A stretch of 6,214 bases of DNA from a virus (lineage: Duplodnaviria > Heunggongvirae > Uroviricota > Caudoviricetes): the IMG/VR virus record IMGVR_UViG_2690316115_000003, positions 1-6,214 of that record; one strand, given 5' to 3'. Under the pieces are notes generated by a model that was given only the letters and a program-made list of their open reading frames with translations, ran no database searches and was not told the origin of the DNA. Shown here in pieces: positions 1 to 6,214 of this stretch; position 1 is the stretch's first letter, and each line of letters starts with the position of its first letter. Both the position numbers and the translations under genes were made by a program.

Positions 1-46
1 CTGCCCGTTGACGGACTTCAGGGGAAAAACGAGTATTTTTAGTCAT
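1..46 (-). CDS. IS3-family transposase OrfA, first 15 codons only (partial, runs off the left edge)
   Basis: Minus-strand ATG at 46..44 preceded by AAGAGGTAAACAGG (GAGG Shine-Dalgarno). Translation is [15 protein letters not shown]..., which I recognise as the N-terminus of IS629/IS1203-type OrfA. Too short for the ORF track. Confidence 0.65.
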
Positions 47-100
47 CCTGTTTACCTCTTTCTCAGGAAGTTTAGTCTCCAGGATTCCCGGGGCGGTTCA
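1..100 (-). mobile_element. Terminal ~100 bp of an IS3-family insertion sequence (IS629/IS1203-like); the rest lies left of the window
   Basis: The reverse complement of 1..100 begins TGAACCGCCCCGGGAATCCTGGAGACTAAACTTCCTGAG, a 5'-TG terminal repeat of the kind IS3-family elements carry. About 54 bp inside that end a minus-strand ATG opens the OrfA-like reading frame. The boundary at 100/101 is placed from recall of IS629-type ends, not from an alignment. Confidence 0.65.
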
Positions 101-166
101 AATTGTAACCCACAGATTTGCAGAGTGGGCTGTGGGTGATTTCAACCGGCAGAAGGAGACAGTCCT

Positions 167-346
167 TTGCAACAAGTTAACCGCTGGTTCAAAGATCACT
201 ACGGAGTGCCCGTCAGAGTCATTCGTTGGGAACCGGAAACACAACGGGTTATCTACCTCCGCGAAGGCTATGAGCATGAGTGCTTCAGCCCGCTCGAACA
301 GTTTCGTCGTAAATTCAGGGAAATAGAGGTCGGTCATGAGCACTAA
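167..346 (+). CDS. Small hypothetical protein (59 aa, TTG start), translationally coupled to the downstream replication gene
   Basis: Reading frame open from 140 to the TAA at 344..346. TTG at 167 lies 7 nt after AAGGAGA (153..159). Translation (M)[58 protein letters not shown] looks like a real protein, unlike the Ser-rich frame of the listed 132..326 ORF. Its stop overlaps the ATG of the next gene by 11 nt. No ATG start exists, so this is uncertain. Confidence 0.35.
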
Positions 347-1277
347 ATTAACCGGCTATGTATGGGATGGTTGCGCTGCGTCAGGCATGAAGTTATCCAG
401 CGTGGCAATTATGGCCCGCCTGGCTGATTTCAGTAATGACGAAGGTGTGTGCTGGCCATCAATTGAAACCATTGCCCGCCAGATTGGCGCGGGGATGAGT
501 ACCGTCAGAACGGCTATCGCACGGCTGGAAGCAGAAGGCTGGTTAACGCGTAAGGCGCGTCGCCAGGGTAACCGCAATGCGTCGAATGTTTATCAGCTTA
601 ACGTTGCGAAGCTTCAGGCAGCGGCATTTTCTCAACTGTCAGATTCTGACCCGTCAAAATCTGACGCATCAAAATCTGACCCGTCAAAATTTGATGCGTC
701 GAAATCTGGCAAAAAAGCGGGTTTTCACCCGTCAGAATCTGGCGGGGATCCGTCAGTAAAATCAAAACATGATCCGTCAGATAAAAAACCTTCTCGTCCG
801 GACGCTTCGCAACCGGACACGCAGACGGATGAACAGGATTTTTTAACTCGCCATCCTGATGCGGTTGTATTCAGCCCTAAAAAGCGCCAGTGGGGAACGC
901 AGGATGATTTGACCTGCGCACAGTGGCTCTGGAAAAAAATCATCGCCCTGTACGAGCAGGCCGCCGAATGTGACGGCGAGGTGGTTCGTCCCAAAGAACC
1001 GAACTGGACAGCCTGGGCAAACGAAATTCGCCTGATGTGTGTGCAGGATGGTCGTACTCACAAACAAATCTGCGAGATGTACAGCCGCGTCAGCCGCGAT
1101 CCGTTCTGGTGCCGTAACGTGCTCAGCCCGTCGAAGTTGCGGGAAAAATGGGATGAGCTTTCCCTGCGCTTATCGCCGTCCGTCAGCACGCACACAGAAA
1201 AACGCGAAGACCCGTACTTCAAAGCCAGTTACGACAATGTGGACTACAGCCAGATCCCGGAAGGATTCAGGGGGTGA
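336..1277 (+). CDS. Phage replication initiation protein, O-like (N-terminal winged-helix DNA-binding domain, repeat-rich linker, C-terminal domain); resembles defective-prophage YfdO-type proteins
   Basis: ATG at 336 preceded by AGAGGT. N-terminus [73 protein letters not shown] is a typical winged-helix segment of lambdoid replication initiators. The central region encodes DPSKSD/ASKSD pentapeptide repeats over a DNA iteron array. Gene order (initiator, YfdN-like, methyltransferase) matches the CPS-53-type replication region as I remember it. Confidence 0.75.
   Translation: MSTKLTGYVWDGCAASGMKLSSVAIMARLADFSNDEGVCWPSIETIARQIGAGMSTVRTAIARLEAEGWLTRKARRQGNRNASNVYQLNVAKLQAAAFSQLSDSDPSKSDASKSDPSKFDASKSGKKAGFHPSESGGDPSVKSKHDPSDKKPSRPDASQPDTQTDEQDFLTRHPDAVVFSPKKRQWGTQDDLTCAQWLWKKIIALYEQAAECDGEVVRPKEPNWTAWANEIRLMCVQDGRTHKQICEMYSRVSRDPFWCRNVLSPSKLREKWDELSLRLSPSVSTHTEKREDPYFKASYDNVDYSQIPEGFRG
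638..790 (+). repeat. Iteron-like array inside the O-like gene: about 8 copies of a ~15-bp unit CCGTCA(A/G)AATCTGAC with internal dyad symmetry (GTCA...TGAC); putative phage replication origin
   Basis: Direct reading: five tandem units across 638..710 (GTCAGATTCTGAC, then CCGTCAAAATCTGAC, GCATCAAAATCTGAC, CCGTCAAAATTTGAT, GCGTCGAAATCTGGC), then after an A-tract spacer (GGCAAAAAAGCGGGTTTTCAC) further units at 729..743, 750..764 and 774..788, ending in GATAAAAAACC. In lambda the origin iterons lie inside gene O in the same relative position. Confidence 0.5.
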
Positions 1278-1768
1278 TCATGAGTCTTTTGAATGAAGTT
1301 CAGAAATTCATTGAAGCCCATCCGGGCTGTACTTCCGGAGACATTGCGGATGCTTTTGCAGGTTACTCACGGCAGCGCGTACTGCAGTCAGCAAGCAGGT
1401 TACGTCAGAGTGGGCGTGTGGCTCACCGTTGTGAAGGGGATACACGCAGACATTTCCCGCGTCTGACTGAGAGAGCGCAGGAGCCGGAACCACAACCAGT
1501 TCGTGAAACCAGACCTGTGCGCAATTTCTATGTCGTCACTAACGATCCCCGGGTGATTTTGTGCCTGACCCGCCAGGCTGAAGAACTGGAGTCAAGAGGC
1601 TTATACCGTCGTGCTGCAACCGTGTGGATGGCGGCATTCCGTGAAAGCCACTCCCAGCCAGAACGAAACAATTTTCTGGCACGTCGTGAGCGGTGCTTAC
1701 GGAAAAGCAGCAAGCGCGCTGCATCGGGTGAAGAGTGGTATCTGTCAGGGAATTACGTGGGGGCTTAA
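1274..1768 (+). CDS. Hypothetical prophage protein, YfdN-like (164 aa); N-terminal winged-helix-like segment, C-terminal PerC-like motif
   Basis: GTG at 1274 or, more likely, ATG at 1280 (AGGGGG just upstream); 164 aa from GTG matches the length I recall for K-12 YfdN. The stop at 1766..1768 overlaps the next start as TAATG. The C-terminal segment LTRQAEELESRGLYRRAATVWMAAF resembles the conserved core I associate with PerC/Pch-type small regulators (recall, not search). Confidence 0.6.
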   Translation: MIMSLLNEVQKFIEAHPGCTSGDIADAFAGYSRQRVLQSASRLRQSGRVAHRCEGDTRRHFPRLTERAQEPEPQPVRETRPVRNFYVVTNDPRVILCLTRQAEELESRGLYRRAATVWMAAFRESHSQPERNNFLARRERCLRKSSKRAASGEEWYLSGNYVGA

Positions 1769-2421
1769 TGAGTAATAAATATTGCCGGGCGCTGGTGGAA
1801 CTGCGGAACAAACCAGCCCATGAACTGAAGGACGTGGGCGATCAGTGGCGCACGCCGGATAATATTTTCTGGGGAATTAACACCCTGTTTGGTCCGTTTG
1901 TTCTGGATCTGTTCACTGACGGTGATAACGCCAAATGTGCCGCGTATTACACGGCGGAAGACAACGCGCTGGCGCATGACTGGTCAGAACGTCTTGCGGA
2001 GCTTAAAGGTGCTGCCTTTGGCAATCCCCCGTACAGCCGCGCCAGTCAGCATGAGGGGCAATACATCACCGGCATGCGTTACATCATGAAGCATGCCAGT
2101 GCCATGCGTGATAAAGGCGGGCGCTATGTTTTCCTGATCAAAGCTGCCACCAGCGAAGTGTGGTGGCCGGAAGATGCAGATCATATTGCTTTTATTCGCG
2201 GGCGTATTGGTTTTGAACTGCCTGCCTGGTTTATCCCGAAAGACGAAAAGCAGGTGCCAACAGGTGCTTTCTTCGCTGGTGCTATTGCTGTTTTCGACAA
2301 GACCTGGAAGGGACCGGCAATCAGCTACATCGGGCGCGATGAACTTGAGGCATGTGGTGAGGCATTTCTGGCGCAGGTTCGCCAGCAGGCGGAAAAACTG
2401 GTCAGGGAGATGGTGGCATGA
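1768..2421 (+). CDS. Phage DNA N6-adenine methyltransferase (Dam-like orphan methyltransferase)
   Basis: ATG at 1768 shares its A with the upstream TAA (TAATG). The ORF track starts the frame at GTG 1735, but the internal ATG is preferred. Catalytic-type motif NPPY is present (AAFGNPPYSR, near 2012..2035). Overall resembles phage Dam-family methyltransferases of lambdoid nin regions, including YfdM of CPS-53. Confidence 0.8.
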   Translation: MSNKYCRALVELRNKPAHELKDVGDQWRTPDNIFWGINTLFGPFVLDLFTDGDNAKCAAYYTAEDNALAHDWSERLAELKGAAFGNPPYSRASQHEGQYITGMRYIMKHASAMRDKGGRYVFLIKAATSEVWWPEDADHIAFIRGRIGFELPAWFIPKDEKQVPTGAFFAGAIAVFDKTWKGPAISYIGRDELEACGEAFLAQVRQQAEKLVREMVA

Positions 2422-2807
2422 AGCTAATACTGCCTTTTCCGCCCAGCGTGAACACGTACTGGCGACACCCCAACAAAGGGGCATTTGCTGGTAAGAGCCT
2501 GATAAGCGAGGCGGGGCGAAAATTTCAGAGCGCGGCGTGTGCCGCCATCATTGAGCAGTTACGTCGTCTGCCGAAACCAACGTCGGCACCTGCTTCAGTG
2601 GAGATCGTGTTGTTTCCTCCGGATAACAGGATCCGCGATCTGGACAACTATAACAAGGCGCTGTTTGACGCCCTGACCCACGCGGGTGTGTGGGAAGACG
2701 ACAGCCAGGTGAAAAGAATGCTGGTGGAGTGGGGACCGGTTATCCCGGAAGGGAAGGTCGAGATCACTATCAGTAAGTACGAGAAAACGGCGGGTGCAGC
2801 CGCCTGA
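2418..2807 (+). CDS. rusA: RusA-family crossover junction endodeoxyribonuclease (Holliday junction resolvase)
   Basis: ATG at 2418 overlaps the methyltransferase stop (ATGA), with GGGAGA 7 nt upstream. The 129-aa product MKLILPFPPSVNTYWRH...RDLDNYNKALFDALTHAGVWEDDSQV has the RusA hallmark layout, including the acidic RDLDN catalytic region. Confidence 0.85.
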   Translation: MKLILPFPPSVNTYWRHPNKGAFAGKSLISEAGRKFQSAACAAIIEQLRRLPKPTSAPASVEIVLFPPDNRIRDLDNYNKALFDALTHAGVWEDDSQVKRMLVEWGPVIPEGKVEITISKYEKTAGAAA

Positions 2808-2826
2808 TCAAGAGGAGAAACGAAGT

Positions 2827-3624
2827 ATGAATAATCTGATGGTCATTGATGGTATTGAAGTTCGTCGTGATGCTTATGGGCGTTACAGCCTGAACGATCT
2901 GCATAGGGCTGCTGGTTCTCTGGATAAGCATAAGCCTGCATTCTGGCTCCGCAATGAGCAAACTGAGCGTTTAATAAGCGAGTTGCAGATTTGCAACTCG
3001 GTCAATATAGAGCCAGTTAACGTTATTCGTGGCGGAAATAACCAGGGGACGTATGTCTGCAAAGAACTGGTGTATGCCTATGCAATGTGGATCAGCCCGT
3101 CATTCCATCTGAAGGTGATCCGTACTTTCGACATGGTAACCAGCGCACCGGAAAAATTATCCGGACAGGCTGCTGACAAGATGCAGGCTGGCGTGATCCT
3201 GCTGGACTTTATGCGCCGGGAATTAAATCTGTCTAACTCATCAGTGCTTGGAGCCTGTCAGAAGCTTCAGGAGGCTGTTGGCTTACCGAATCTGGCACCG
3301 CGCTATGCCATTGATGCTCCTGCTGACGCGCCTGATGGCTCAAGTCGCCCCACGCTGTCGCTGAGTGCACTGCTGAAGCAGTATGGTATCCGCCTGACGG
3401 CTAATCAGGCATATCACCAGATGGTGAAGCTGGGGATCGTTGAACAACGCGAACGATACAGCCGTACCGCGATTAACAACATCAAAAAATTCTGGTCGCT
3501 GACCGCGAAAGGCTGCATGTTCGGCAAGAACATCACCAGTCCTGCAAATCCGCGCGAGACGCAGCCGCATTTCTTCGAATCCCGATTTCCTGAGCTGTTA
3601 AAGCTGCTCGATACCGTTCATTGA
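2827..3624 (+). CDS. KilA-N domain-containing protein (N-terminal KilA-N DNA-binding domain, C-terminal domain of unknown function)
   Basis: ATG at 2827 with GAGGAG 8 nt upstream (the track's longer frame from 2794 lacks a Shine-Dalgarno). N-terminus MNNLMVIDGIEVRRDAYGRYSLNDLHRAAGSLDKHKPAFWLRNEQTERLISEL fits the KilA-N pattern. The C-terminal ~150 aa is not recognised. Confidence 0.7.
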   Translation: MNNLMVIDGIEVRRDAYGRYSLNDLHRAAGSLDKHKPAFWLRNEQTERLISELQICNSVNIEPVNVIRGGNNQGTYVCKELVYAYAMWISPSFHLKVIRTFDMVTSAPEKLSGQAADKMQAGVILLDFMRRELNLSNSSVLGACQKLQEAVGLPNLAPRYAIDAPADAPDGSSRPTLSLSALLKQYGIRLTANQAYHQMVKLGIVEQRERYSRTAINNIKKFWSLTAKGCMFGKNITSPANPRETQPHFFESRFPELLKLLDTVH

Positions 3625-3625
3625 G

Positions 3626-4621
3626 GTGACTGTGAGAGCACTACTGACCCCTGAAATTGCCCCGCGTATGGGGATCGTATTGTTCAGACCCGGTTCAGAG
3701 CTGATGCCCCTGTTTATGCAGGGGCGTGTCCTGCTGGAGCCTGAGCCGGAACGTTATTCATCTTTTGCCAGTGGTGCCGTTCCGGCAGCATCACAACCGC
3801 TGGCGGATGATCCTGCCGTTCGGGCCGTGTTCCGCAATGAGGCAGTGATCCGTCGTGCTGGTGGCGTGGAATGTCTTGAAAGCTGGTTACTTCGTGAAAA
3901 AGGTTGCCAGTGGCCTCATTCCGACTGGCACAGCGAGAACATGACCACAATGCGACACGCGCCGGGCGCAATCCGTCTGTGCTGGCACTGCGATAACCAG
4001 CTGCGCGATCAGTTCACGGAACGGCTGGAATCAATGGCAACGGATAACTGTGCCCGCTGGGTGTTGTCTGTTGTGCGTCGGGATCTCGGTTTTGATGACA
4101 GTCACGTTGTGACAATGCCGGAACTGTGCTGGTGGCTGGTTCGTAATGATCTGGCGGATGCCTTACCGGAAAGTGCAGCCCGTAAGGCACTGAGATTACC
4201 GAAGCCTGTTGTGCCGTCTGTCACCCGGGAGAGTGACCTTGTGCCTTCGGTTCCGGCCACCAGCATCATCCAGAATAAAGCGAAAAAGGTGCTGGCGCTG
4301 AAAGTGGATCCGGAGTCGCCGGAGTCTTTTATGTTACGCCCAAAACGTCGCCGCTGGGTTAACGAAAAGTACACGCGCTGGGTTAAGACGCAGCCGTGTG
4401 CATGTTGTGGAAAGCCTGCTGATGATCCCCACCACCTGATAGGCCACGGTCAGGGGGGAATGGGTACAAAAGCGCATGACCTCTTCGTGCTGCCTTTGTG
4501 CAGAAAGCATCACGACGAGCTGCATGCGGATACCGTGGCATTTGAAGAGAAGTATGGCTCCCAGCTGGAGCTGATATTTCGTTTTATCGATCGTGCGCTG
4601 GCAATAGGCGTGCTGGCCTGA
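3626..4621 (+). CDS. DUF968-like prophage protein (YdfU-like) with C-terminal HNH-type Cys/His cluster; putative nuclease
   Basis: GTG at 3626, 2 nt after the upstream stop; an alternative GTG at 3632 sits better behind GAGGTGA, so the start is uncertain by 2 codons. C-terminus QPCACCGKPADDPHHLIGHG...HDLFVLPLCRKHHDELH (about 4395..4524) has Cys and His spacing reminiscent of HNH/His-Me finger nucleases. Position between nin genes and Q is typical for this family. Confidence 0.65.
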   Translation: MTVRALLTPEIAPRMGIVLFRPGSELMPLFMQGRVLLEPEPERYSSFASGAVPAASQPLADDPAVRAVFRNEAVIRRAGGVECLESWLLREKGCQWPHSDWHSENMTTMRHAPGAIRLCWHCDNQLRDQFTERLESMATDNCARWVLSVVRRDLGFDDSHVVTMPELCWWLVRNDLADALPESAARKALRLPKPVVPSVTRESDLVPSVPATSIIQNKAKKVLALKVDPESPESFMLRPKRRRWVNEKYTRWVKTQPCACCGKPADDPHHLIGHGQGGMGTKAHDLFVLPLCRKHHDELHADTVAFEEKYGSQLELIFRFIDRALAIGVLA

Positions 4622-4638
4622 TTTTGTGGAGAAAGTTG

Positions 4639-5010
4639 ATGCGTGATATTCAAATGGTTCTTGAACGTTGGGGGGCATGGGTGGCAAATAATCACGAGGA
4701 TGTGGAATGGTCATCTGTTGCTGCAGGTTTTAAGGGATTAATTCCTTCGAAAGTAAAATCCCGCCCGCAATGTAGCGATGACGATGGCCTGATCATTAGC
4801 TCTGCGATGACAGTTCTTAAGAAAAAGGAACCGTATCAATACGAATTACTGGAAATGTATTATGTGTATGGGGTTACATTACGGGTATTGGGGGTAAAAC
4901 TGGGGATATCACTTAATCAGGTTGTTATCAGACTGCAGAAAGCTGAAGGGTTTATTGACGGTTGTCTGGCAATGTTGGGGGTATCTTTAGAAATTGATTG
5001 TTACATATAG
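4639..5010 (+). CDS. Late-gene antitermination protein Q, short phage-21/QuuD-type (123 aa)
   Basis: ATG at 4639 with GGAG 7 nt upstream (the track begins at 4624). N-terminus MRDIQMVLERWGAWVANNHEDVEWSSVAAGFKGLIPSKVKSRPQC closely matches what I recall of DLP12 QuuD-type Q proteins. Gene order (rusA ... Q) is canonical for lambdoid phages. Confidence 0.75.
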   Translation: MRDIQMVLERWGAWVANNHEDVEWSSVAAGFKGLIPSKVKSRPQCSDDDGLIISSAMTVLKKKEPYQYELLEMYYVYGVTLRVLGVKLGISLNQVVIRLQKAEGFIDGCLAMLGVSLEIDCYI

Positions 5011-5047
5011 TAATAAATTCAATCAAAGTAAATAATCATATTTTATT

Positions 5048-5084
5048 ATAACCTCCTGATGATACCTGTTCATTGGGAGGTTAT
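5048..5084 (+). promoter_or_regulatory. Shine-Dalgarno-sequestering hairpin in the 5' leader of the AT-rich orphan gene
   Basis: AUAACCUCC (5048..5056) is perfectly complementary over 9 bp to GGAGGUUAU (5076..5084), which contains the GGAGG Shine-Dalgarno of the ORF starting at 5086; the loop is 19 nt. Pairing was checked base by base. Confidence 0.4.
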
Positions 5085-5085
5085 T

Positions 5086-5703
5086 ATGGATAAAAATGTA
5101 GAGCATGTATTAGTTGATGCAATTGAAAATAAGCAATCTTTAACAGTCGTTTACTTAGGAGGGAGCCAGCCCGGAACATTAAGGAATATTTCTCCGATTA
5201 GTATAAATGGGGATAAATTGCGGGCAAGATGCCATAGTTCTGGAGCAGTAAAGGTTTTCAATCTTGGGAAAATACAGTTACCCAGTGACTCCTGCGCGGT
5301 ATCTATGCACTATGGAGATTTAAAAGTTAAAGCTTATGAGACGATGCAGAGCGTAAATGACAACTTTCATGCCCTTTATCCTGAAGGACGATGGGGTGTT
5401 GATTTTAATGAGCATCGCTTTGCTTTATTTGATTTTTTTAAAAACGGGAAACGAAAAAAAACGGCATTTATGGCAATTGAGTTCAGGGAAAGAGATGAAG
5501 AGAAAATAATAACAGGTGTAACAATTGATATTGGTATATCTGGAACAGTGATTTCTGAGAAGTCCCGAATCCCAAAAAGACGACCATGGGTAGTGGTTGG
5601 TCCCGAACACGGAGAATACAGTACTTATTCAACTTTGGACAAGGCTGCTACAGCGTTTTTTGAGAGGCTTTCGTTGATAGCATCCGGCCTGGAAGATAAT
5701 TGA
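5086..5703 (+). CDS. Orphan hypothetical protein (205 aa) in an AT-rich cargo block downstream of Q; function unknown
   Basis: ATG at 5086 lies 5 nt after GGGAGG; the in-frame ATG at 5059 has no Shine-Dalgarno. Hand-counted G+C is 19/60 for 5101..5160 versus 32/60 for 2401..2460. The frame stays open for 206 codons despite the AT richness. I recognise no family; the segment VVYLGGSQPGTLRNISPISINGDKLRARCHSSGAVKVFNLGKIQL has spacing loosely reminiscent of WYL/SH3-like beta-barrel domains (weak). Confidence 0.7.
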   Translation: MDKNVEHVLVDAIENKQSLTVVYLGGSQPGTLRNISPISINGDKLRARCHSSGAVKVFNLGKIQLPSDSCAVSMHYGDLKVKAYETMQSVNDNFHALYPEGRWGVDFNEHRFALFDFFKNGKRKKTAFMAIEFRERDEEKIITGVTIDIGISGTVISEKSRIPKRRPWVVVGPEHGEYSTYSTLDKAATAFFERLSLIASGLEDN

Positions 5704-5776
5704 TTTTATGTTTGGTATTCAGAGTTCGCCGTGCTTAAGAAAGTCAAGATTCTAAAAATACTGAATGAGCTACTTG

Positions 5777-5785
5777 TGTTATAAC
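5777..5785 (+). promoter_or_regulatory. Extended -10-like element TGtTATAAC (possible sigma70 promoter; weak -35)
   Basis: TGTTATAAC at 5777..5785 matches TGnTATAAT in 8 of 9 positions. The best -35 at 17-bp spacing (AATACT, 5757..5762) matches only 2 of 6. It sits about 50 nt upstream of a strong terminator, so any transcript would be short (about 65 nt). AT-rich DNA produces such matches by chance. Confidence 0.25.
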
Positions 5786-5833
5786 AAAAATGCTATTAGT
5801 GTGTTAAGAGTGGTTACTTCGCCACACAACTTA

Positions 5834-5858
5834 AACCCGCCACTGAGCGGGTTTTTTG
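5834..5858 (+). terminator. Rho-independent terminator
   Basis: AACCCGC (5834..5840) pairs with GCGGGTT (5847..5853) as a 7-bp stem with 5 G:C pairs and a 6-nt loop CACTGA, followed by a T-run (TTTTTTG). It lies 130 nt after the stop of the orphan gene. Confidence 0.75.
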
Positions 5859-5979
5859 TACCTGTAAACTTGGTGCAGTACAGTAAACACGCTGGTGGTC
5901 GTGAATACTGACTTTTTATCTTGCTGGCTTTTTAGACAAGAGTTATTGGTATGTCATGTTAACCAGAAGGGAAAAAGAC

Positions 5980-6177
5980 ATGCTAAAACAGCAAGATATG
6001 ACCGAAACCGCCAGAGTGGTGTTTAATGAATTGAGCGTCACCGAACCGGCGACAGTCGGGGAGATTGCGCAGAATACTTACCTTTCACGCGAACGCTGCC
6101 AGTTAATACTGACCCAGCTGGTTATGGCGGGTCTGGCAGACTATCAGTTCGGTTGTTACAGACGCCTTCCGCAGTGA
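5980..6177 (+). CDS. Small hypothetical protein (65 aa from ATG 5980; 73 aa from ATG 5956), helix-turn-helix/winged-helix-like
   Basis: Open frame 5956..6177. The second ATG (5980) is preferred because AAGGG lies 8 nt upstream. The segment TVGEIAQNTYLSRERCQLILTQLVMAGLADY has the look of a helix-turn-helix recognition region. G+C returns to about 50%. No family recognised. Confidence 0.45.
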   Translation: MLKQQDMTETARVVFNELSVTEPATVGEIAQNTYLSRERCQLILTQLVMAGLADYQFGCYRRLPQ

Positions 6178-6192
6178 AGGCTTTTTTATTTG
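6164..6192 (+). terminator. Rho-independent terminator overlapping the stop codon of the small HTH-like ORF
   Basis: GCCTTC (6164..6169) pairs with GAAGGC (6176..6181) as a 6-bp stem with loop CGCAGT, followed by TTTTTTATTTG. The TGA stop at 6175..6177 is inside the hairpin. Confidence 0.55.
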
Positions 6193-6214
6193 TGGTAAAT
6201 GGGCGGCTGGTGGG

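Follow-up and report, generated by a model that had tools for sequence, protein, structure and literature searches.

ORF205, a stand-alone WYL-family protein carried between antiterminator Q and the putative late promoter cassette of a lambdoid prophage

In transcription factors such as PafBC, DriD, CapW and BrxR, which turn on DNA-damage responses or defence systems, the WYL domain is known as the half that senses the ligand. WYL1, an accessory protein of Cas13d, acts via protein-protein or RNA contacts and not via transcription. In lambdoid prophages, the stx genes are an example of cargo in the Q-proximal region; they are located after the late promoter and its terminator (pR'-tR') and depend on antitermination by Q (PMC6266700). 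This work describes ORF205, an open reading frame (ORF) encoding a WYL-family protein of 205 amino acids (aa), at positions 5086-5703 on the plus strand of a 6,214-nt stretch of Caudoviricetes DNA (positions 1 to 6,214 of IMG/VR record IMGVR_UViG_2690316115_000003, hereafter the window). The window covers the early-right/nin region of a lambdoid prophage, and ORF205 is moron-type cargo in the slot between Q and the putative pR'-tR' cassette.

Compared with the regulators composed of a winged helix-turn-helix (wHTH), a WYL and a WCX domain (CapW, BrxR, DriD and PafBC), ORF205 is devoid of the wHTH and linker helices and starts a few residues before the WYL helix. Its W-Y-L triad is L-R-A (V-R-A in the family) and its C-terminal domain does not follow the WCX order. 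By analogy, it would share with WYL1 and other WYL proteins without a helix-turn-helix (HTH) the use of the WYL domain as a nucleic-acid-binding accessory module. The locus resembles prophage morons and defence hotspots (lambda rexAB, the P2/P4 hotspots and SNIPE/PD-lambda-1) in its variable slot occupancy, its atypical composition, and the defence genes, validated or candidate, that sister phages have there. The slot itself is another one, between Q and the putative pR', rather than the immunity region, the P2 hotspots or the stretch behind tR'; ORF205 also differs in being on the forward strand with no evident promoter or terminator of its own.

As to function, we put at about even the chance that ORF205 is a stand-alone nucleic-acid-sensing accessory protein that would, by analogy, act in phage-host or phage-phage conflict; within this reading, defence is more likely than counter-defence. 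The novelty resides in a WYL sensor without the usual DNA-binding output, combined with an undescribed domain and carried as mobile-element cargo. The family itself is already catalogued.

ORF205 and its protein family

The original prediction, made from the sequence alone, described a 205-aa gene at 5086-5703 with a GGGAGG Shine-Dalgarno (SD) sequence and regarded its product as an orphan. ORF, SD and start were found again: the GGGAGG motif is located at 5075-5080, 5 nt ahead of the ATG, and the start is at 5086 and not at the upstream ATG at 5059, since the N-termini of homologues begin at the same residue. The orphan status, on the other hand, has to be abandoned. An identical protein, WP_000360285.1, is encoded by E. 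coli S88 and carries the RefSeq name 'WYL domain-containing protein'. ORF205 matches phrog_8498, a PHROG of unknown function, over its full length (E-value (E) 7.6e-126) and phrog_31886 over the first half of the latter. An exhaustive HMMER profile search of 50%-identity cluster representatives retrieved 954 relatives at E ≤ 1e-3, of which 607 reach E ≤ 1e-10 and 190 reach E ≤ 1e-30; a word-index homologue search had found only 9. Family members are nearly all 187-210 aa long and align end to end across phyla, with Leucothrix, Flavobacterium, Pseudoalteromonas, Alteromonas and Shewanella among the named sources. In the literature searched, no description of the function of the family was found; it is catalogued as a PHROG and by its RefSeq name.

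Three lines of evidence place a WYL fold at the N-terminus. Pfam WYL (PF13280) scores ORF205 itself below its gathering threshold (16.5 versus 21.8 bits, E 0.0084) and matches 25 of the 71 aligned family members at E ≤ 0.01 (best E 1.2e-5). The family profile matches the WYL chains of DriD (E 2.6e-4), BrxR and CapW in the Protein Data Bank (PDB). Finally, an AlphaFold2 model based on the 71-sequence alignment (mean predicted local distance difference test score (pLDDT) of 85.8) has the WYL hallmark, a five-stranded Sm/SH3-like barrel after an alpha-helix, and the predicted WYL fold is nearest to those of DriD and CapW, which bind single-stranded DNA (ssDNA). The fold is thus assigned by profile and model, and the earlier guess of a WYL/SH3-type barrel in the N-terminal part proves right at the level of both family and structure. 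A structure search against BFVD gave no match to the whole protein.

In the model, residues 1-66 (5086-5283) comprise a helix (3-14) and the WYL/Sm-like barrel with its strands within 19-59. They are followed by a disordered linker (residues 67-86, 5284-5343; about 65-85 by the AlphaFold2 elements) and a family-specific alpha/beta domain (residues 87-205; 5344-5700) with basic FKNGK and RRPW loops. Residues Y23, G25, G26, S27, P29, G30, R33, P37, A47, C49, K56, F58 and K62 of the barrel domain are invariant or nearly so. CapW and DriD contact ssDNA with a conserved Ser, with the Arg on either side of the WYL strand (RWHVR) and with another Arg further on (PMC11662680). By motif register, S27 (in GGS), K44/R46/R48, K56 and R33 of ORF205, all of them invariant or almost so in the family, match the positions of CapW S144, R164, R168 and R184. 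No HTH family was matched in Pfam, NCBIfam or PADLOC, and none is present in the predicted model, in which the WYL helix starts at residue 3. Without an HTH, ORF205 cannot be a DNA-binding repressor or activator.

The C-terminal domain is predicted to consist of a helix (87-97), strands at 104-107, 111-117 and 123-133, a loop, strands at 168-171 and 178-181, and a final helix (184-199); the loop (134-167) is of low confidence in the AlphaFold2 model. Its conserved features are W103, the FKNGK loop, the RPW motif, A187 and F191. A profile of this domain gave zero matches in the PDB or Pfam. A WCX identity was considered and rejected, because the order of elements differs from that of the ferredoxin-like WCX of PafBC (PMC6789036). 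The original prediction had suggested a single-gene anti-phage, abortive-infection or toxin function; no toxin or enzymatic motif is evident in ORF205.

The stand-alone family members have no transmembrane (TM) segments. Among the 12 members longer than 240 aa, eight carry such segments (P0090, P0127, P0143, P0144, P0207, P0216, P0220 and P0221) in several architectures: TM helices are N-terminal in some, and C-terminal after double zinc ribbons in others. Two further members have tandem WYL domains.

ORF205 is a real gene under purifying selection. Relative to a natural allele with 72% identity, the ratio of nonsynonymous to synonymous substitution rates (dN/dS) is 0.21 overall: 0.15 and 0.20 in the WYL and C-terminal domains, respectively, but 0.92 in the linker. 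These values bear directly on the idea that the gene is decaying or functionless DNA that hitch-hikes in a recombination-prone interval, an idea to which its atypical composition and mosaic position lend some support. Low ratios confined to the folded domains, a two-domain architecture kept at full length in approximately 950 cluster representatives across phyla, and a confident fold prediction all speak against it, and we consider it very improbable.

The slot between Q and the putative late cassette

The antiterminator gene Q (4639-5010, plus strand) encodes a 123-aa protein of the short 21Q-like type that matches Pfam Phage_antitermQ (E 1.3e-47) and the 21Q structures 6jnx and 6p18 (E 5.6e-10). 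In the described 21Q cassette, the Q-binding element is located between the -35 and -10 elements (PMC6606751). The published geometry also includes a -10-like pause element in the initial transcribed region and then a terminator, and the cassette in the window has the same arrangement. A putative late promoter pR' is found at 5774-5802 (plus strand), with -35 TTGTGT at 5774-5779, a 17-nt spacer that contains a CAAAAA element as candidate Q-binding element, and -10 TAGTGT at 5797-5802. It is directly followed by a conserved initial transcribed region, GTTAAGAGTGGTTACTTCGCCACACAACTT (5803-5832, plus strand), a candidate sigma-dependent pause or Q-loading leader. Then comes an intrinsic terminator (5833-5857, plus strand), the putative tR', with stem AAACCCGC/GCGGGTTT, loop CACTGA and a U-run. 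The GC-rich hairpin of 8 bp spans 5833-5854 and the U-run extends to 5857; it was found by folding and missed by a consensus scan. Altogether, we infer pR'/qut at approximately 5774-5832 and tR' at 5833-5857.

Comparison of loci with a short Q is consistent with this assignment. Five divergent loci share, in register, (C/T)AAAAA-N6-(T/C)AnnnT and directly thereafter GTTAAGAGTGGTTACTTCGCCACACA. Within the promoter-like TTGnnn-17-TAnnnT, all five retain the -10 but differ in the -35 and in spacing. Only the two loci in which the C-terminal halves of Q (a sigma-4-like HTH) are 84% identical have -35 and spacer in common; loci with C-terminal halves of 33-52% identity have unrelated spacers, yet the same transcribed leader. 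Every short-Q locus keeps the leader at 5803-5832, and phages of the 250-aa Q type have a different sequence in its place.

The breakpoints of similarity with sister phages separate cargo from backbone. Against short-Q relatives, similarity ends inside Q at 4687 or 4797 and returns at 5785-5802. Against phages with a 250-aa Q (SfV and an Stx2k phage), it ends at 4633, before Q, and returns at 5834, the first base of the terminator core, so that approximately 45 bp ahead of the terminator go with the Q type. The terminator is common to empty-site phages and to phages with a different Q type, and is annotated as such in SfV. From this pattern it follows that the terminator and the 73-aa ORF behind it belong to the backbone. 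The terminator starts 130 nt past the stop codon of ORF205, with the promoter-like element in between. The original prediction had the cargo block end at a strong terminator: hairpin and U-run do exist, but they are backbone and not the end of the cargo. With pR' at 5774-5832, ORF205 would be upstream of the late promoter and the terminator would not be its own. Neither empty-site phages nor the 72% variant have a counterpart of the 3' tail of the insert (5704-5773, plus strand; 32.8% GC over 5704-5767). A pR' upstream of ORF205, by which the gene would come to lie within the constitutive leader, was considered and discarded: empty-site phages keep only the homologue of 5785-5835 beside Q, and the element co-varies with Q.

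The 73-aa ORF (5956-6177, plus strand) encodes a winged-helix protein (phrog_331, with a sub-threshold TrmB-like match) and is the first gene after the terminator. Together with the preceding terminator, it is conserved behind two unrelated Q types (L004, L005 and L006), and in sister phages it opens the late operon, followed by methylase, tRNA and stx or lysis genes. On the minus strand at 5825-5961, Rfam gives a match below threshold to STnc130, a small RNA of enterobacteria (30.1 bits versus a gathering score of 55, E 0.16). As this match uses the terminator hairpin as a minus-strand terminator, the terminator may be bidirectional.

The full 850-bp block is present in 51 of 5426 complete E. 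coli genomes, and approximately 900 have the downstream module only. None of the deposited phage records carries ORF205; related phages match Q and the segment from approximately 5785 on. To survey the slot, the exact 26-nt leader was used to collect IMG/VR contigs (L081-L196), in which Q was found by its conserved N-terminus. In at least 97 contigs, Q stop and leader lie from less than 50 nt (at least 10 empty sites) to approximately 3 kb apart, in more than 12 size classes. At least 28 cargo architectures and at least 38 cargo-protein clusters occupy the slot. Cargo is nearly all on the minus strand among the matches listed, and the WYL gene is among the few plus-strand occupants.

Several occupants match defence models. 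L22 of phiP27 matches SNIPE/PD-lambda-1 (E 2e-89); SNIPE, a validated nuclease, cleaves phage DNA while it is being injected (PMC13190303). Others are a PDC-S20/PifA-like KAP NTPase (E 3e-177), NsnA/PD-T4-2_A (E 6e-45), an OLD-type ATPase-Toprim/HEC-04 gene (E 1e-36) that forms a pair with a cytosine methylase gene, PDC-M53A (E 1.5e-31) and a KwaB-like (Kiwa-like) protein with a TM partner. Several abundant occupants have no match in the defence models. The Q-to-pR' interval is therefore a hypervariable hotspot, variably occupied and rich in defence genes. No account of it as a hotspot was found in the literature accessible to search.

Abundant cassettes in the slot pair a multi-TM protein with a soluble protein of approximately 300 aa (clusters C0 with C1, a DUF6731 protein; C4 with C3; C12 with C13; C36 with C37), and NA37-type proteins (C9 and C23) also occur; no PADLOC model was matched by these cassettes or by the NA37-type occupants. 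The occupant of PhiR40_1 (L003:3490-3936, minus strand), a 148-aa protein of cluster C2 that is present in at least 12 contigs, has a lipoprotein signal, MNKMTVLLLSATIISGC, and no Pfam or PADLOC match. A lipoprotein signal is typical of superinfection-exclusion lipoproteins.

The original prediction had proposed accessory cargo at this post-Q position, to be examined by comparing the Q-to-lysis interval in related prophages. That comparison bears it out as regards variable occupancy: empty sites and at least 28 architectures occur, and ORF205, far from universal, is present in the 51 genomes mentioned. The analogy with stx fails, as stx is located downstream of pR'-tR'. ORF205 and Stx-type cargo are alike as accessory genes in the Q-proximal region of lambdoid prophages; located before the putative pR', ORF205 would belong to a different transcription unit, and its expression should not depend on Q at tR'.

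Expression, genomic contexts and composition

A predicted RNA hairpin of 15 + 5 bp (5042-5090, plus strand) has a minimum free energy of -23.4 kcal/mol and a z-score of -3.96, and none of 200 shuffled sequences folds as well. It buries both the SD (5075-5080, paired with the anti-SD CCTCC at 5052-5056) and the AUG (5086-5088), and is a candidate translational throttle of ORF205. The 72% variant keeps the hairpin, and two G.U pairs are Watson-Crick pairs there; just these two sequence types exist. As a family-wide feature the hairpin was ruled out, because it is confined to the Q-linked enterobacterial clade and missing in distant homologues. Conservation of the 5042-5090 stretch may also have another cause, since a sigma-70-like site on the minus strand, TGAACA-16-TATAAT (5045-5072), overlaps the hairpin and is directed antisense into Q. 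In a consensus scan it is the top promoter-like match in 4600-6214 (10 of 12 positions), and it is partially retained in the 72% variant (TGAACG-16-TACTGT at the corresponding minus-strand place). The antisense site recalls lambda paQ.

The same consensus scan, which a weak or non-canonical promoter could escape, revealed no sigma-70-like site on the plus strand upstream of ORF205 except one that overlaps the ATG. No terminator was found between Q and ORF205, and an Rfam scan gave nothing above threshold. ORF205 thus departs from moron cargo with its own promoter and terminator, the downstream terminator being backbone. Co-oriented with Q, not separated from it by a terminator and without a recognizable promoter of its own, it is probably co-transcribed with Q, and would be expressed by read-through as the last gene of the early-right operon.

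This arrangement opens another explanation, in which ORF205 is a lytic-cycle helper or counter-defence protein that is expressed with Q after induction and binds ssDNA fragments from replication. It may aid DNA transactions as nin-region proteins do, or serve as an ssDNA sponge or decoy that keeps host CapW and BrxR from derepressing CBASS or BREX during prophage induction. Besides the shared strand and the lack of a detected promoter or intervening terminator, the location at the tail of a nin-like operon with genes for DNA transactions (Dam, RusA, KilA-N and DUF968/HNH) agrees with this explanation, as does a WYL fold nearest to ssDNA-binding DriD and CapW. CapW senses ssDNA, and CBASS under control of CapW blocks lambda prophage induction (PMC11662680). 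The slot occupants and the neighbours of distant homologues nevertheless are defence genes or candidates and not known anti-defence genes, some homologues are located in chromosomal defence islands outside phages, and the TM fusions do not fit easily with a soluble sponge. One phage lineage, moreover, has the homologue behind a repressor gene, a position expressed in the lysogen. We regard a helper or counter-defence role as unlikely, if less so than the regulatory role considered below.

The genomic contexts of homologues were compared. The 72% variant is likewise located between Q and the same late cassette. Among the distant homologues, one is found at the 3' accessory end of a capsid-encoding satellite, beside a PDC-S52/DUF6988 gene, and one in a Bacteroidota island after PDC-S06 and an Mrr-nSTAND PDC-S73 gene. 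Another adjoins a HEPN gene, and another a DpdE/ZorD-like SNF2 helicase. Two are located between structural or terminase (TerL) genes and Rha, and one is flanked by insertion sequences (IS). In three loci (L071:7529-8579, L072:7576-8576 and L076:7570-8570), the homologue directly follows a gene for a CI-like HTH protein of 138-152 aa, divergent from cro; this CI-like protein has no Peptidase_S24 match. The three loci represent one marine phage lineage. Their position is rexAB-like and compatible also with a split sensor/repressor pair.

The latter arrangement raises the possibility of a developmental regulator, in which ORF205 is the sensor half of a split WYL regulator that acts on a separate DNA-binding protein, be it a CI-like repressor devoid of a cleavage domain or Q, and in which ssDNA binding may tune induction or the early-to-late switch. 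Known WYL regulators join a WYL sensor to an HTH output (PMC6789036). The homologue directly 3' of a CI-like protein without a Peptidase_S24 match, and the constant adjacency to Q in the window and the 72% variant, fit such a role. The CI-linked loci are one lineage, however, and not independent cases, and no partner is conserved over the satellite end, the defence islands, the IS-flanked site and the TerL-to-Rha interval. Sister phages with the same Q type function with an empty slot or unrelated cargo, so ORF205 is dispensable for the switch. A developmental role is, in our judgement, quite unlikely.

The remainder of the window comprises genes for a replication HTH protein (336-1277), PerC (1280-1768), Dam (1768-2421), RusA (2418-2807) and KilA-N (2824-3624) and a DUF968/HNH gene (3626-4621). 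E. coli S88 has a LexA-like gene between Dam and RusA (L001:8918-9244) that is absent from the window (2418-2421); the nin-region backbones that hold the Q-WYL module consequently differ slightly. The replication-initiator gene contains, at 637-711, iteron-like direct repeats (TCTGACCCGTCAAAA and variants) that probably mark the origin of the phage; the repeats code for a repetitive SKSD(A/P)SK peptide and give rise to a spurious sub-threshold Rfam match to 'mir-5880'.

The G+C content (GC) is 53.5% in the upstream genes (1-4638), 41.9% in Q (39.0% in its 3' part), 25.3% in the 75-bp spacer between Q and ORF205 (5011-5085), 39.5% in ORF205 (32% at third codon positions) and 50% in the downstream 73-aa ORF. 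The AT-rich block of the original prediction is real, with a GC of 37.8% over 5011-5860 versus 53.5% upstream. An abrupt drop after the Q stop is not what the values indicate: Q is already low, and the mosaic breakpoints are located inside or at the start of Q. The 3' two-thirds of Q and the cargo form one low-GC mosaic segment, in which the spacer at 5011-5085 is the only extreme.

A proposed role in phage conflict

If ORF205 is a nucleic-acid sensor in conflict, its WYL domain would bind ssDNA or a related nucleic-acid ligand from phage replication, DNA damage or prophage induction, and contact may be made through the conserved top-face residues GGS27, K44/R46/R48, K56 and R33. Lacking a DNA-binding output, the protein would relay the signal by its C-terminal domain rather than by transcription. 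This domain might act by protein-protein, nucleic-acid or membrane-proximal interactions. The hairpin that sequesters SD and AUG may throttle translation. The outcome would be a role in defence or exclusion, or in its modulation, like that of most other slot occupants. Such a defence-type role is plausible by analogy with these occupants and with the contexts of distant homologues.

Several points weigh against this proposal. The step to defence is guilt by association, and PADLOC-DB v2.0 (2023) yields only generic Cas-associated WYL models (E 0.0014 and 0.0073). The family alignment of the C-terminal domain contains no conserved acidic or His residues suggestive of catalysis and no catalytic motif, and no partner or effector gene is conserved across at least 12 contexts. 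With neither partner gene nor catalytic motif, how a lone soluble binder of 205 aa would stop a phage is unexplained. The ssDNA assignment rests on motif register and fold and not on residue-level superposition. The eponymous W-Y-L triad on strand beta3 is L-R-A in ORF205 (K44-L-R-A-R48-C; K-V-R-A-R-C in the family); CapW and BrxR deviate as well (RWHVR), so a WYL domain can do without the exact motif. For a classical prophage defence gene, expression in the lysogen is required. ORF205, unlike almost all other occupants listed, which are on the minus strand, is co-oriented with Q and has no recognizable promoter, an arrangement more in keeping with expression during lytic growth than in the lysogen. 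Lastly, the position of pR' is computational and implies an unusually short leader of about 50 nt.

A broader claim is tentative and, on balance, somewhat improbable: the HTH-less WYL family of approximately 195 aa may constitute a novel type of immune or counter-immune protein that stands alone and senses nucleic acids, defined by detection of ssDNA from an infecting or inducing phage, a non-transcriptional output through the C-terminal domain (membrane-tethered in some relatives) and an undescribed hotspot between Q and the late promoter.

The Q-to-pR' interval is a compact hotspot that is simple to delimit, with the Q gene at one end and the exact 26-nt leader at the other. Many of its occupants have no match in defence models, which makes it a practical place to seek new systems. 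The family of ORF205 is found in cargo slots of prophages and satellites as well as in defence islands. A large family that keeps the sensor and drops the DNA-binding output poses the question of what a non-transcriptional WYL sensor does. If ORF205 were a defence or counter-defence protein, it would constitute a small single-gene module with a directly testable ligand hypothesis, ssDNA.

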